This document shows, piece by piece, positions 19,997-23,812 of a stretch of DNA of 64,000 nt. Made by a program: the position numbers and the translations under genes. This stretch comes from an uncultured Acidobacteriota bacterium. Lineage in GTDB: Bacteria > Acidobacteriota > Terriglobia > Terriglobales > Acidobacteriaceae. The stretch spans positions 44,698-108,697 of the forward strand of contig CAVXNI010000009.1 in the NCBI GenBank assembly GCA_963763155.1, in the 5' to 3' direction. Numbering within the stretch: the stretch's first letter is position 1; the number at the start of each line of letters is the position of its first letter. Below the pieces are notes generated by a model. The model saw only the letters and a program-made list of their open reading frames with translations. It had not been told where the DNA came from and did not search any database.

Positions 19997-20824
19997 TCAG
20001 CGGGAAGCCGTTTTCGACGAGTTCTGCGGGCGATTCGTCACGGCCTCGGCATCCGACAAGTCGACGCCGGCCCGCAAGCAATCCTGAGGCGAGCCGTTGC
20101 GGGCGACCTTGATCACGTCCGACTCGTTCGAGCAGAATGCCGCCGTCCCCGTTTTGTTTGCCGCCGCCGGATACGCTACCACCTGATACTTCGCAATCGG
20201 TCCGTCCGCCATGGCGGCCGCGCATCCCTTGACCTCGAAGATATATCCATCCTGCTGGCCCTGAGCCAGTTCATTGTTGAGTCCCCACGCGTCTTTTAGC
20301 TCGGAGAGGGAACAGGTGTAACCGGCTTCGTGGTGGGCTTGCTGATAAGCGATTTCAGCCATGTTCAAACTTCGCACCGCCGAGACGACGGGGTTCTCGT
20401 AGTTCACGACCTTTACTTTCTGGGCCACCGATGCTCTCTGAGCCACGGACGACTTCTCCAGTTGCCGTACATAAAACCCCGACCAGAGGATCAGCCCCAG
20501 AGTCGCGGCCACTCCCAGGTAACCCAGCACCAGGCCAGCGATCGCCAATCCTTTTCCTGTGAGCCGGCCTCCGCTCTTGCGAATGTCCGACAGCGATAAA
20601 TGTCCGAAGATGACCGCGGCCAGCGAAAACGGGAGGATGATAAACAACACTCCGCTGATCAGGCTGAAAATCGCCTTGCCGCTGGTTTCAGGGGGAAGCC
20701 CGAAGGCCACGGCCGGATCAACCGCGCGTACAACCGATGTCGCCAGTGCGTCTCGTCCGCAGACTCCGCAGAAACGTTCTCCTTCCGCCATACCGTTTCC
20801 GCAGCCCAGGCAGAACGAACTCAT
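19997..20824 (-). CDS. Zinc-ribbon / DUF4190 two-TM protein with a pilin-like ectodomain
   Basis: N-terminal FCLGCG..FCGVCG. DUF4190-like SLISGVLFIILPFSLAAVIFGHLSLSDIRKSGGRLTGKGLAIAGLVLGY. The C-terminal VSAVRSLNMAEIAYQ..GYTCSLSEL..YQVVAYP..FCSNESDVI is paralogous to 21723-22442. Confidence 0.7.
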   Translation of the reverse strand: MSSFCLGCGNGMAEGERFCGVCGRDALATSVVRAVDPAVAFGLPPETSGKAIFSLISGVLFIILPFSLAAVIFGHLSLSDIRKSGGRLTGKGLAIAGLVLGYLGVAATLGLILWSGFYVRQLEKSSVAQRASVAQKVKVVNYENPVVSAVRSLNMAEIAYQQAHHEAGYTCSLSELKDAWGLNNELAQGQQDGYIFEVKGCAAAMADGPIAKYQVVAYPAAANKTGTAAFCSNESDVIKVARNGSPQDCLRAGVDLSDAEAVTNRPQNSSKTASR

Positions 20825-20851
20825 CCACTCCTCCTCTCCCTCTCTAGCGCG

Positions 20852-21292
20852 TCAGCGGAGCAGCGCCGTCCCCGGCGCCAGCAAATCAAAGGGATGCATG
20901 GGGAGATTTCTGGCGATCGCAAACAGAATGATTACTGCGCAGAGCGCGCGGATCCAGCCGGCGCGCAAGAATGGTTGAGGAAGCCCATGCCCGCGAAATT
21001 CGAGAAGCGCAAACGACGCCAGCCCGTACGTCAGGAACGGCAGCAGAACCACGGTCAGCGGATTCAGCGCCCACGCCGCCCGCAGGTTCCCATGCAGAAG
21101 CTGGTGAATGGCTCGCAGCGATCCGCACCCCGGACAATACCATCCCGTCAAATAGCGCAGCGGACACGGCGGAAAGACGCCCGACGTGGACGGATCGAAA
21201 ACTTCAAGCAGAACTGCCCCCACGGCCATGGCCGCAAGCAGCGCCGCCAGCCCCTGATTCCTGCGCTTGTCCAGCATCGCGACGACCTCCAT
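20852..21292 (-). CDS. DUF2752 family membrane protein
   Basis: CPLRYLTGWYCPGCGSLRAIHQLLHGNLRAAWALNPL matches my recollection of the DUF2752 core, followed by hydrophobic helices. Confidence 0.7.
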   Translation of the reverse strand: MEVVAMLDKRRNQGLAALLAAMAVGAVLLEVFDPSTSGVFPPCPLRYLTGWYCPGCGSLRAIHQLLHGNLRAAWALNPLTVVLLPFLTYGLASFALLEFRGHGLPQPFLRAGWIRALCAVIILFAIARNLPMHPFDLLAPGTALLR

Positions 21293-21302
21293 TTAATTCG
21301 GG

Positions 21303-21692
21303 TTAACTCGAGTGGAGGCCGCTCAAAAGCCCTACCATGACCAGCAAACCATAGATGAGGCCCACACCGAGCCCAAGTCCCGCGGAGATCAAGCACCACA
21401 TCTTCGCGTTCTTGGATGCAAGCTGCGCCCCAGCCATATCCCCGGCCTGCAACTTGCCATTCACCTGCGCGGCATACACGATCGCCGGAATTCCCGCCGG
21501 AAGACAGCACAAAACCGTGGCTAGAATCGCGAATACCAGATAGTTCTGCACCGCGACGCCCGGTGGCAGAACCACCGCAGGCTGTACGGGTTGAAAAGCA
21601 ACCGCCGGAGGGCCCGCTTGCAGACTCCGGCCGCACTGCATGCATACCGCCGCGGTGTCCGCGTTGTTCGCCCCGCATTGAGAACAAAACAT
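21303..21692 (-). CDS. Zinc-ribbon / CD225 (dispanin, IFITM-like) membrane protein
   Basis: MFCSQCG..VCMQCG, then NYLVFAILATVLCCLPAGIPAIVYAAQV..AKMWCLISAGLGLGVGL, the typical CD225 two-helix module. Confidence 0.75.
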   Translation of the reverse strand: MFCSQCGANNADTAAVCMQCGRSLQAGPPAVAFQPVQPAVVLPPGVAVQNYLVFAILATVLCCLPAGIPAIVYAAQVNGKLQAGDMAGAQLASKNAKMWCLISAGLGLGVGLIYGLLVMVGLLSGLHSS

Positions 21693-21722
21693 TTGTTGCC
21701 TCCTGAAAAAATGTGGAAAAGC

Positions 21723-22442
21723 TTACTGCAGCGCGCTGCCGCTCTCCATGCAACCCTGCGCTGAACCGCTGGGATCAAACCTGATGACGGCGGATTCATC
21801 CGAGCAGAACGCTCGCACTCCGGTCTGGTTGGGCGTCACTGGATAGGCGACTATCCGATACTTCACGTTGCTCGTGCCCTCAGCTCCTGCCGCGCAATCC
21901 CTCAAGCCGAATACGTATCCAGACTTTCTCCCGCTTCTCAATGTGCTATCGACCTGATCGAGATCCGACAGCGCGCAAGTGTATCCCGTCGCAGGATGGG
22001 TTTGAGAATAAACTTCCTCGGCAACATTCAGCGTCCTGACTGCCGCTACTGCCGATGACTCGTTGGCCGCCATCCGCGCGCGCAGCAGGTTCGGGATGGC
22101 AATGGCTGCGACGATCAAAATCACCGGAAGCGCCGCCACCCCAGCGTAGCCCAGAACCAGGCCGGCAATGGCCATGCCGTGTCCCGTAAGCCGCCCGGCA
22201 CTCTGGCGAATCTCTGACAGTGAAAGGTGCCCGAAGATCACGGCCGCAATCGCAAACGGCGTAAATAGAAAAAGCAGCCCAAAGAGCAGACTGGCAATCG
22301 CTTTCCCGCTCGTCTCCCCGGGTCCCACCGGCGCGCTGGCGGGTATCACCGCAGAGTCCGGGAATGCCGCCCTCCCGCAAACCCGGCAAAATTTATCCTC
22401 GGCAACTACGCTGCTCCCGCAACCGGGGCAGAATGAAGCCAT
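21723..22442 (-). CDS. Zinc-ribbon / DUF4190 protein with a pilin-like ectodomain (paralog of 19997-20824)
   Basis: MASFCPGCG..FCRVCG and the DUF4190 core AVIFGHLSLSEIRQSAGRLTGHGMAIAGLVLGY. Then IAIPNLLRARMAANESSAVAAVRTLNVAEEVY, which is the classical type IV pilin alpha-1 helix sequence without the G/FTLIE cleavage motif. Confidence 0.7.
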   Translation of the reverse strand: MASFCPGCGSSVVAEDKFCRVCGRAAFPDSAVIPASAPVGPGETSGKAIASLLFGLLFLFTPFAIAAVIFGHLSLSEIRQSAGRLTGHGMAIAGLVLGYAGVAALPVILIVAAIAIPNLLRARMAANESSAVAAVRTLNVAEEVYSQTHPATGYTCALSDLDQVDSTLRSGRKSGYVFGLRDCAAGAEGTSNVKYRIVAYPVTPNQTGVRAFCSDESAVIRFDPSGSAQGCMESGSALQ

Positions 22443-22576
22443 TCCAACCTCCAATCGTCGAATGCTCGAAACGTCGCTTTCCGCAGCGCGCGGAAATTTG
22501 CACGAAACATACTATCCGTTGGCCTCGCCGTCAATGCGGAAGTGCGGTCCATTTGCCGCCCACCCCGCGTTTTGAT

Positions 22577-23203
22577 ATGGTCGCCTCAATGGATGAGTCC
22601 AGGGATCAGACCGGGAATGAGGGGAATGAAGCCGGGGATGCGAAGAATGTCCCGCTGACTTCGTGTCCGCAGTGCGACGCGCAGATGCCCGCAACGGCCG
22701 CCTTCTGCCCCGGTTGCGGCCGGCCTATGCCCGGCCAGCCCACGCCCGGCGAGTCGATGCCCGAACAGTTGACGCCCGAACAGTCGACGCCCGAACAGTC
22801 CATGCCCGCTCAGTCCATCCCGACGGAAGCCCGCGCGCAAGGCCGGGTCGGTGCGCTTCCCGAAAATATCGCGGGTGGGCTCGCCTATTTCACGTTTGTC
22901 CCCGCCGTTGTATTCCTGGTCCTCGATCCCTATAACAAGAATCGCTTTGTGCGTTTCCATTCGGTGCAGTGCCTGTTGCTATGGGGCGCGTCTGTTCTGT
23001 TCGCGATCGCGCTGAAACTGGCCAGCGTAGTTCTTTTCATCATCCCGGTGCTCGGCCCGCTACTGGTCTACCTGGTCTCCACCGTGGTCGTGCTTGCGGC
23101 CGGGGTGATCTGGGTGGTTCTGGTGGTCAAGGCCTTCCAGGGAGAGATGTTTAAACTGCCGCTGCTCGGCGATTTCGCCGCGCAGCAAGCCGGGGAACTC
23201 TAA
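22577..23203 (+). CDS. Zinc-ribbon / DUF4870 membrane protein
   Basis: CPQCD..FCPGCG, a Pro/Glu/Gln-rich tandem-repeat linker, then GGLAYFTFVPAVVFLVLDPYNKNRFVRFHSVQ (DUF4870-like). Start at 22577 or 22589. Confidence 0.7.
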   Translation: MVASMDESRDQTGNEGNEAGDAKNVPLTSCPQCDAQMPATAAFCPGCGRPMPGQPTPGESMPEQLTPEQSTPEQSMPAQSIPTEARAQGRVGALPENIAGGLAYFTFVPAVVFLVLDPYNKNRFVRFHSVQCLLLWGASVLFAIALKLASVVLFIIPVLGPLLVYLVSTVVVLAAGVIWVVLVVKAFQGEMFKLPLLGDFAAQQAGEL

Positions 23204-23341
23204 GGTCCTCCTACCCGCTAAAAATTGTTGATTGCTTTACCTTAGGCTTTTTGATACCTTGCAGCGTCGCTTGGCGGGGGTCTTGCGCAGGCTGCAGGGT
23301 TTGCATCCTTCGCCCCAAACGACACCGAGGAGGACACCTCT

Positions 23342-23812
23342 ATGGCTTTTTGCAGTGTGTGCGGAGCTCAGATCGCGGACGGAACCACCGCTTGCGCAGC
23401 CTGTGCAGGCCGGGCCGCAACCGCCCCCCCTGTACCCCAGGCGACCGCTAGCGCGGGCGGCGGCATGGCCGACAACGTGGCCGGAATGCTGGCTTACATC
23501 ACCATCATCCCAGCAATTATTTTCCTGGTCATGGAACCCTACAACAAGAACCGGTTCGTCCGATTTCACTCGTTCCAGAACATCTTTTTCGTAGTGGCGA
23601 TGATCGTATGCTGGATTGCGTTCTCCATCCTCGCCATGGTCTTGGCGTTTATCCCGATTCTGGGGCACCTTATCCTTGCGCTTCTCTGGTTCGCCCTGGC
23701 CATCGGTTCGTTCGTTGCATGGATCATCATGCTGCTGAAGGCCAACGGCGGTCAGATGTGGAAGCTGCCCTTTATCGGCGACTTGGCGGAAAAGCAAGCC
23801 AACGCTATGTAA
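23342..23812 (+). CDS. Zinc-ribbon / DUF4870 membrane protein (paralog of 22577-23203)
   Basis: MAFCSVCG..ACAAC, then GMLAYITIIPAIIFLVMEPYNKNRFVRFHSFQ, and a shared C-terminus (G.MWKLPFIGD.A..QA). Confidence 0.75.
   Translation: MAFCSVCGAQIADGTTACAACAGRAATAPPVPQATASAGGGMADNVAGMLAYITIIPAIIFLVMEPYNKNRFVRFHSFQNIFFVVAMIVCWIAFSILAMVLAFIPILGHLILALLWFALAIGSFVAWIIMLLKANGGQMWKLPFIGDLAEKQANAM

Follow-up and report, generated by a model that had tools for sequence, protein, structure and literature searches.

We analysed a 64,000-nucleotide stretch of DNA from an uncultured Acidobacteriaceae bacterium (contig CAVXNI010000009.1; the whole stretch is called the window below), in which six genes for membrane proteins are gathered within 3.8 kb. 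Four of these genes, termed g4, g3, g2 and g1 in their order of reading, lie on the minus strand with intergenic gaps of 27, 10 and 30 nt. The other two, g5 and g6, follow one another on the plus strand at a spacing of 138 nt, and g4 and g5 stand head to head with 122 nt between them. An earlier reading of this DNA, made from the sequence alone, had described the same arrangement, and its coordinates, strands, gaps and each cysteine motif that it quoted were reproduced. Profile searches also back the families that it had named: Pfam identifies two DUF4190 proteins (g1 and g4), a DUF2752 protein (g2), a CD225/dispanin protein (g3) and a DUF4870 protein (g6), while the second DUF4870 assignment (g5) holds only through its paralogue g6. 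Comparison with other genomes reveals that the evolutionary core of this locus is a CD225 gene followed by a DUF2752 gene, a pair whose order and strand are preserved in at least six phyla, and that DUF4190 and DUF4870 genes are recurrent accessories of this pair. The features of the locus are collected in Table 1.

Table 1. Positions of the six genes, their distinctive domains and motifs, the candidate promoter and the convergent neighbour (ZnR, zinc ribbon; aa, amino acids; ORF, open reading frame; AF2, AlphaFold2; numbering of the window)
Feature	Position	Strand	Basis and remarks
g4, ZnR-DUF4190-pilin-like protein, 239 aa	21723..22442	minus	first gene of the operon; Pfam; 100%-identical database protein P0121
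g4 pilin-like C-terminal domain, ~residues 110-239, four invariant Cys	21726..22115	minus	AF2, Foldseek, PilA match
g3, ZnR-CD225/dispanin (IFITM-like) protein, 129 aa	21303..21692	minus	Pfam; CD225 domain ~21351-21548, ZnR 21633-21686
g2, DUF2752 protein, 141 aa from M6	20852..21277	minus	Pfam; longest ORF reaches 21292
DUF2752 Cys motif, C38-x9-C48PGC51G...H58...H62 (141-aa numbering)	21092..21166	minus	conservation in 86 representatives
g1, second ZnR-DUF4190-pilin-like protein, 275 aa	19997..20824	minus	last minus-strand gene; pilin-like domain ~20057-20407, ZnR 20759-20812
Sigma-70-like promoter TTGACG-17-TATGTT of the g4-g3-g2-g1 operon (predicted)	22506..22534	minus	consensus scan, conserved blocks
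g5, ZnR - Pro/Glu/Gln-rich linker - HOTT/DUF4870-like membrane protein, 208 aa	22577..23203	plus	divergent from g4; ZnR 22664-22717
g6, ZnR - DUF4870/HOTT membrane protein, 156 aa	23342..23812	plus	Pfam; ZnR 23351-23404
Fur-family regulator	19472..19972	plus	convergent with g1; Pfam FUR 102 bits; syntenic neighbour, not judged a module member

Two of the gene starts call for comment. The start of g4 is most likely the ATG at 22442, and not the TTG at 22454 chosen in the sequence-only reading, because the identical database protein P0121 has 239 residues and a GGAGG sequence lies 7 nt upstream of this ATG. Likewise, g2 most likely begins at M6 (position 21277), because nearly all of its homologues begin there and are mostly 141 aa long; a database look-up of the exact g2 sequence returned no record. 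By the names of its closest homologues, the DNA belongs to Acidobacteriota, near Candidatus Sulfotelmatobacter/Acidoferrum.

Conservation of the neighbourhood was assessed mainly by scanning a single genome for each GTDB species with a 14-sequence DUF2752 alignment, which returned 80 loci that were mapped with iterated hidden Markov models (HMMs) built from the window proteins. Of the 64 acidobacterial loci with room to judge, 62 have CD225 immediately ahead of DUF2752 and on its strand, and the zinc ribbon is always present. Other genes recur within 6 kb in these 64 loci, namely those for DUF4190 (43 loci), DUF4870 (51), a Fur-family regulator (59) and a penicillin amidase (57). A further scan of metagenomes, anchored on CD225, found DUF2752 immediately downstream and on the same strand at 74 of 74 loci, DUF4190 upstream at 37 of 54 and DUF4870 within 3 kb at 29 of 35, figures that describe the same acidobacterial clade (68-95% identity), the only one returned, and are no measure of bacteria at large.

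The pair extends well beyond this clade. Loci from other phyla (Tolypothrix, Calothrix, Chloroflexia, Rubrobacter, Pirellulales, Sedimentisphaerales, Thermodesulfobacteriota and Desulfobacteraceae) have CD225 immediately ahead of DUF2752 in 9 of 11 cases, with the two genes 762 bp apart in one more, and the pair is present in seven of eight further contexts for which precomputed Pfam annotation was available. In addition to Acidobacteriota, the phyla with the pair are Planctomycetota (L074, L082), Cyanobacteriota (L075, L077, L083), Chloroflexota (L079, L084), Actinomycetota (L081, L169), Thermodesulfobacteriota (L072) and probably Bacillota (L174). The accessory genes are found at several of these distant loci. 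A Sedimentisphaerales locus (L074) has a divergent DUF4870 gene (132 bits), then a ZnR-DUF4190 gene, two ZnR-CD225 genes and DUF2752; the order ZnR-DUF4190, ZnR-CD225, DUF2752 is seen in Pirellulales (L082), and DUF4190, CD225, DUF2752 in Nonomuraea (Actinomycetota). Another locus (L179) places a ZnR-TM2 gene ahead of ZnR-DUF4190, ZnR-CD225 and DUF2752. Elsewhere DUF2752 is accompanied by other small membrane proteins, as in the arrangement TM2, DUF2752, TM2 of Streptomyces and in DUF4234 followed by DUF2752 in Paenibacillus. DUF2752 thus looks like a common partner of several families of small proteins predicted to form membrane hairpins.

Two further observations came from these loci. At one of them (L070, 5500-6362) CD225 and the N-terminal half of DUF2752 share one ORF, and the remainder of DUF2752 lies in another frame. 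This apparent fusion probably results from indel errors, as there is an adjacent frameshift in a metagenome-assembled genome, and it was rejected as Rosetta-stone evidence. Two metagenome-assembled genomes titled Candidatus Binatus/Binatia (L014, L064) show the complete gene order of the acidobacterial loci at 57-76% identity, suggestive of either mis-binning or a recent transfer.

The cluster contains two paralogous pairs, as had been proposed from the sequence alone: g1 and g4 are 47% identical (E 9e-70), and g5 and g6 are 44% identical over 117 aa of the membrane domain (E 2e-35). The accompanying proposal that the cluster has expanded locally fares less well, since the two duplications are old ones with positional orthologues across species rather than a recent expansion. 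The g1 protein resembles its counterparts on the downstream side of DUF2752 in ~16 relatives (55-81% identity) more closely than it resembles g4, and g4 is closest to copies upstream of CD225. Similarly, g5 is closest to promoter-proximal DUF4870 copies and g6 to distal ones. Because each copy has positional orthologues, both duplications predate the divergence of the species, with both copies retained.

The CD225 assignment of g3 is well supported. The protein scores 88.0 bits against Pfam CD225 (PF04505; cut-off 27.1) and matches the CD225 domain of PRRT1 solved by cryo-electron microscopy (9zks_M) with an E value of 1.1e-9. It has two hydrophobic segments, with peaks at residues ~46-77 and 105-123, and the conserved basic loop of ~25-30 aa. 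The hallmarks of the domain are all present: the di-cysteine in the first segment (LCCLP), a GxxxG motif in the basic loop (GDMAG) and a cysteine at the start of the second helix (KMWC). Bacterial homologues from six phyla keep the LCCLP, GDMAG and WC motifs. Eukaryotic CD225/dispanin proteins (IFITM1-3, PRRT1/2 and TRARG1) share with g3 this full domain, the di-cysteine, the GxxxG motif and the second-helix cysteine, as well as a variable N-terminal cytoplasmic head ahead of the domain; the heads of Actinomycetota CD225 proteins are Pro/Gly/Gln-rich and recall the PRRT proteins. In contrast to its eukaryotic relatives, g3 is bacterial, has a Cys4 zinc-ribbon head and belongs to a group whose genes are nearly always followed by DUF2752.

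To our knowledge, DUF2752 has no eukaryotic counterpart, and we know of no S-palmitoylation machinery in bacteria. Bacterial CD225/IFITM homologues have been proposed in the literature as the origin of the vertebrate antiviral IFITM genes. Their function has been described as unstudied (PMC4488726), and their conserved cysteines were left unexplained (PMC3282796). When produced in human cells, mycobacterial homologues can be S-acylated on the di-cysteine and modestly restrict influenza virus (PMC4488726). Two variations on the CD225 theme were encountered in other genomes. A locus of Thermodesulfobacteriota (L072, 4062-6363) has four tandem CD225 genes, three of them with zinc ribbons, followed by one DUF2752 gene. 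In another contig (L088, 1-5450) the CD225 protein bears an additional Prok-RING_1 head and is followed by DUF2752; immediately ahead of this pair are E2 (UQ_con), two JAB, FHA and trypsin-like genes, which make up a bacterial ubiquitin-like cluster.

The partner protein g2 scores 72.9 bits against Pfam DUF2752 (PF10825; cut-off 27). Its AF2 model (pLDDT 82) consists of three long helices with a 45-residue loop after the first, and this loop carries a C-x9-CPGCG motif and two histidines. Among 86 representatives with no more than 50% identity, C48, G50, C51 and G52 are invariant, and C38 and H58 are conserved in at least 90%. The three cysteines are near-universal in these representatives, and Actinomycetota homologues have lost the histidines. 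A periplasmic location of the motif is probable, because lysine and arginine are sparsest in its loop (0.06 per residue, compared with 0.19 for the N-terminus and 0.20 for the second loop). DUF2752 is a large family (over 7,000 clusters when grouped at 50% identity), and sequence, profile and fold searches found no relative of it in the PDB or BFVD. Its surroundings in other genomes include two single cases linked to envelope biogenesis, one in which DUF2752 adjoins yajC-secD-secF with lnt upstream on the opposite strand (L087, 5570-9228) and one in which it follows lolA and a lipid A acyltransferase gene (L086, 2771-4976). On two independent contigs (L177 and L178, 4600-6900) DUF2752 is followed by genes for a 324-aa protein with weak similarity to DUF7847 and an Rce1-like CPBP intramembrane protease.

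The sequence-only reading had described all six products as short and polytopic. This description does not fit g1 and g4, each of which ends in a globular domain of ~130 aa behind its DUF4190 region (58.2 bits for g1 and 55.9 bits for g4 against PF13828; cut-off 35). The AF2 model of g4 (pLDDT >90 in this domain) shows one long helix (residues 88-148) followed by a four-stranded sheet, and this predicted arrangement is that of a pilin, with an alpha-1 helix packed on an antiparallel beta-sheet. The best Foldseek matches of the g4 domain are pilins, namely ComP (5hz7; probability 0.99, E 0.05), 2nba, 4d40 and PilX, with probabilities of 0.99-0.84 but weak E values of 0.05-0.3. A phmmer search with the g4-type domain matched PilA (6xxd) with an E value of 0.03, and homologues of g4 are labelled PilA/PulG by JGI. 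Four cysteines are invariant in the pilin-like domain of the g1/g4 family. A separate gene for a zinc-ribbon-headed protein with a transmembrane segment and a pilin-like domain lies between DUF4190 and CD225 at locus L087, and its product matches Myxococcus xanthus PilA with an E value of 8e-4.

The likeness of g1 and g4 to type IV pilins and pseudopilins extends, in models predicted with high confidence, to the long alpha-1 helix on a four-stranded sheet and to conserved cysteine pairs, and the helix sequence AIAIPNLLRARMAANESSAV resembles pilin alpha-1. The differences are equally clear. Neither protein contains a class III signal peptide with a prepilin-peptidase site (G|F/M-T/S-L-x-E), and no assembly genes of a type IV pilus or type II secretion system are found nearby. 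The pilin-like helix is instead preceded by a DUF4190 hairpin and a cytoplasmic zinc ribbon, such that extraction of g1 or g4 into a fibre seems impossible. The same four-cysteine domain forms the end of a 320-380 aa signal-peptide protein in ~20 related genomes, encoded 1.2-2.5 kb beyond the DUF4870 genes (L011, L012, L030, L046, L047, L059 and others); this protein was not detected between positions 12001 and 32000 of the window. Because relatives carry the domain on a signal-peptide protein, the pilin-like domain of g1 and g4 is probably periplasmic, and DUF4190 would then need an N-in/C-out, IFITM-like topology. A possible homology between the DUF4190 and CD225 hairpins was also considered. 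An hhalign comparison of profiles built from the loci gave a probability of 6%, no better than controls, and the idea was dropped, although with alignments of such low diversity (effective sequence number, Neff, ~2.6) it is not disproved.

Of the plus-strand products, g6 scores 29.3 bits against Pfam DUF4870 (PF09685; cut-off 25), and g5 gives sub-threshold scores for both DUF4870 (14.4 bits) and TIC20 (15.8 bits). Orthologues of g6 are labelled MamF_MmsF/TIC20 in precomputed Pfam annotation, and the sequence around the ATG of g5 is conserved in relatives. The statement in the sequence-only reading that all the membrane families present have no defined bacterial function needs to be amended for DUF4870, which was recently renamed HOTT and grouped with Tic20 and the MamF-like proteins of magnetosomes in one superfamily (PMC11628618); HOTT proteins beyond the MamF group are uncharacterised. 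Like the members of this superfamily, g5 and g6 are small proteins with three membrane helices. They differ from MamF-like proteins in that no magnetosome genes are present at their locus, and from described HOTT proteins in their N-terminal zinc ribbons and in the Pro/Glu/Gln-rich linker of g5, neither of which is mentioned in PMC11628618.

A recurring element of the cluster is the N-terminal CxxC-x10-CxxC knuckle found in g1, g3, g4, g5 and g6 (CPGC..CRVC at 22377-22430 in g4). Pfam Zn_Ribbon_1 (PF13240) recognizes it above the cut-off in g3 (30.3 bits) and g5 (26.4 bits) and below the cut-off in g4 (22.3 bits) and g6 (20.2 bits), and does not detect it in g1. The pattern CxxC-x(8-20)-CxxC occurs in exactly 5 of the 190 ORFs of at least 100 aa in the whole window, and all five are inside the cluster. 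Small membrane proteins headed by a zinc ribbon are widespread among bacteria. Generic examples, in which Zn_Ribbon_1 or DZR is joined to TM2, DUF4190 or RDD, have the same succession of N-terminal CxxC-x10-CxxC, linker and hydrophobic segments, and the cluster differs from them in combining five such proteins from three anchor families in a conserved association with DUF2752. Near-identical ribbons of the form MYCxKCGTxNDDN..KCxxCG are carried by DUF4190, pilin-like, TM2 and CD225 anchors at loci L087, L179, L074 and L082. In Nonomuraea, GYGQQP repeats take the place of the ribbon heads on both proteins. The occurrence of the same heads on different anchors within each operon, in distant lineages, lends support to the earlier suggestion that these zinc-ribbon-headed membrane proteins cooperate.

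Co-transcription of g4, g3 and g2, possibly together with g1, is plausible, because the genes are tightly spaced and a sigma-70-like promoter ahead of g4 is conserved in relatives. This candidate promoter (22534-22506 on the minus strand), located by a consensus scan, coincides with the conserved blocks of the divergent intergenic region of related genomes. These blocks are gcATTGACGc, AGTATGT and TTCGTGCAAATTT, with individual 8-mers present in 15-19 of 34 relatives. The non-palindromic TTCGTGCAAATTT block (~22493-22506), which lies just 3' of the -10 element and is found in many relatives (L005-L066), could be a leader or operator. An Rfam scan found no RNA element in the cluster. It did detect a fluoride riboswitch (crcB motif) at 5158-5222 of the window on the minus strand (60.8 bits; gathering score 34).

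The genes that flank the cluster encode RNase II, a SIS-domain protein, an MFS transporter and MetH/MTHFR-like enzymes. On the g6 side, a 328-aa ORF with no Pfam match (24062-25048, plus strand) is followed by DUF2127 (25178-25696, plus) and DUF1161 (25797-26108, plus) genes, and an ORF with no Pfam match and a DUF2127 gene also come after the cluster in the related genome L002. An IS-type transposase gene (DUF772 + DDE_Tnp_1; 11639-12727, plus strand) is located ~7 kb from the cluster, and the relative L001 has an IS110 transposase at a different position.

There is very little doubt, in our judgment, that the locus is one copy of a conserved functional module and not a coincidence. How its products act is far less certain. 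By a narrow preference, we favor a model in which they form a single inner-membrane assembly, with DUF2752 as the common partner, clustering heads in the cytoplasm, pilin-like stubs in the periplasm and an output that organises the membrane. In this model the products of g1 to g6 would work together, and DUF2752, a protein with three transmembrane helices and the invariant C-x9-CPGCG motif, would be the shared partner of proteins with two hydrophobic segments, which are CD225 and DUF4190 at this locus and may be TM2 or DUF4234 in other lineages. The matched cytoplasmic heads (zinc ribbons here, and Gly/Tyr/Gln/Pro-rich tails in Actinomycetota) might gather the proteins into clusters or dock them onto a cytoplasmic partner common to all. 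The topology of CD225 and DUF4190 is probably IFITM-like, with the N-terminus inside, a first segment that does not fully cross the membrane, a basic cytoplasmic loop and one spanning helix. With such a topology, the pilin-like domains of g1 and g4 and their disulfides would project into the periplasm as stubs that do not polymerise. By analogy with oligomerising IFITM/CD225 proteins, the assembly would most likely serve to organise or stiffen the cytoplasmic membrane, and hence envelope homeostasis.

Several considerations weigh against this model. Gene linkage indicates a functional connection and is not proof of a complex. The proposed topologies rest only on the positive-inside rule and on analogy, and the membrane-stiffening role is a pure analogy with eukaryotic IFITMs. 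DUF2752 also occurs apart from these partners at three loci (L071, L076 and L086), and at a fourth (L067) it is accompanied only by a divergent DUF4870 gene. Sampling beyond Acidobacteriota is small (~25 loci) and is anchored on DUF2752, so that it counts only CD225 genes near DUF2752. Finally, the ribbon heads are not essential to the core, because the cyanobacterial and Chloroflexota CD225 proteins do not carry them.

Metal regulation and phage defence, both raised in the sequence-only reading, are less likely outputs. A Fur-family gene convergent with g1, adjacent in 59 of the 64 acidobacterial loci, together with five Cys4 motifs and one Cys3 motif in 3.8 kb, might indicate that the ribbons buffer or sense zinc or iron under Fur control. 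However, Fur, like penicillin amidase, adjoins the cluster in Acidobacteriota alone and at no locus from another phylum, and its adjacency is therefore best read as inherited synteny. The Fur gene is convergent and not divergent, the operon has a plain sigma-70-type promoter with no palindrome, and tails that do not bind metal replace the ribbons in other lineages. In addition, a search of the window for the 19-bp consensus of an E. coli-type Fur box, admittedly a crude test, gave no match even with 3 mismatches allowed. We regard a Fur-controlled metal module as highly improbable. A somewhat less remote proposal is an anti-phage or exclusion module, in which CD225 and its partners alter the membrane against phage genome entry or against membrane-fusing phages, as the genuine CD225 domain of g3 and the modest restriction of influenza virus by mycobacterial homologues in human cells (PMC4488726) might suggest. 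Against it, the cluster proteins match no defence family in PADLOC and give only weak matches to zinc ribbons in PHROGs, and 2.9 million viral contigs of IMG/VR contain no relatives of DUF2752 or CD225. Two tblastn matches labelled as phage, L174 (MT839860.1) and L175 (MT836841.1), are faecal contigs titled 'UNVERIFIED: Bacteriophage sp.' that look bacterial, as they carry pyrF/pyrD/pyrK-like, dehydrogenase, aminotransferase and ABC-transporter genes, and they were set aside. (L174 has a ZnR/CD225 gene followed by DUF2752; L175 has DUF2752 and, by eye, two DUF4190-like genes that the DUF4190 HMM did not detect.) The cluster keeps a stable synteny among housekeeping genes throughout the clade, unlike variable defence islands, and thus neither its families nor its location places it among catalogued defence systems. 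Almost no bacteriophages, as far as we know, enter by membrane fusion. These results speak against the phage relatedness that had been suggested by analogy with IFITM, and we consider a defence role unlikely. Least probable by far is a chance juxtaposition of unrelated small membrane genes, the outcome that the sequence-only reading had set against its own proposal in case the neighbourhood was not conserved. The abundance of zinc-ribbon-headed small membrane proteins in bacteria is the only point in its favor; with the order strongly conserved across at least six phyla and hundreds of loci, and with all five ribbon motifs of the window inside the cluster, it is already refuted.

Other explanations assign a more specific biochemical role to individual members. 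The HOTT proteins g5 and g6 could insert or sort hairpin or re-entrant proteins encoded across the divergent promoter, a protein-targeting role that would be compatible with the inner-membrane assembly proposed above. Magnetosome membrane proteins require MamF-like members to be assembled correctly (PMC11628618), and DUF4870 accompanies the operon not only in 51 of 64 acidobacterial loci but in two planctomycetal ones. Nevertheless, most CD225-DUF2752 loci of other phyla have no DUF4870, the divergent arrangement within Acidobacteriota could be plain inherited synteny, and a translocase role is unproven even for MamF and Tic20 (PMC11628618); we judge targeting to be improbable. Slightly more credence, still at a low level, is due to an enzyme-substrate relationship in which DUF2752 acts on cysteines of its partners, either as a thiol-based enzyme in the manner of DsbB or VKOR or as a lipid or metal transferase. 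Its targets would be the CC and WC cysteines of CD225 or the four invariant cysteines of the pilin-like domains. The three near-universal cysteines are the only strongly conserved polar feature of DUF2752, and their location in the loop with the lowest density of lysine and arginine suggests a periplasmic, oxidising site. Moreover, the di-cysteine that is S-palmitoylated in IFITM3 is kept in every bacterial CD225 protein examined, has no explanation in bacteria (PMC3282796) and is the site at which mycobacterial IFITMs can be S-acylated in human cells (PMC4488726). Conversely, if the topology of CD225 is IFITM-like, its cysteines would face the cytoplasmic leaflet, and the DUF2752 motif is predicted to be on the opposite side of the membrane. 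The TM2, DUF4234 and short DUF4190 partners have no common cysteine pattern, neither the sequence nor the fold of DUF2752 resembles that of DsbB, VKOR, DHHC or any solved protein, and CPxCG is just as typical of structural zinc knuckles. A bolder form of the idea, to which we give slightly less credence again, holds that CD225 and DUF2752 constitute an obligate two-protein machine, the ancestral form of IFITM/dispanins, in which the cysteine triad of DUF2752 modifies the cysteines of its partners by thiol exchange, lipidation or metal ligation. If true, this would be a bacterial counterpart of the dependence of IFITM3 on cysteine modification, brought about by a family with no known relative.

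Taken singly, the cluster proteins are ordinary representatives of catalogued families, and public genomes contain hundreds of near-identical clusters. What is new is that dispanin-type membrane proteins have a dedicated, conserved partner and an accessory set. In the literature searched, we found no paper that names DUF2752 or the Pfam or InterPro identifiers of DUF2752 and DUF4190, and no description of the CD225-DUF2752 association, which is, however, visible in any annotated genome. If bacterial CD225 proteins nearly always travel with DUF2752, the role of bacterial dispanins becomes a defined problem of two to six genes. The association would also place several large DUF families in a functional context for the first time, and the locus offers a testable entry point into the ancestral function of the IFITM/dispanin proteins.

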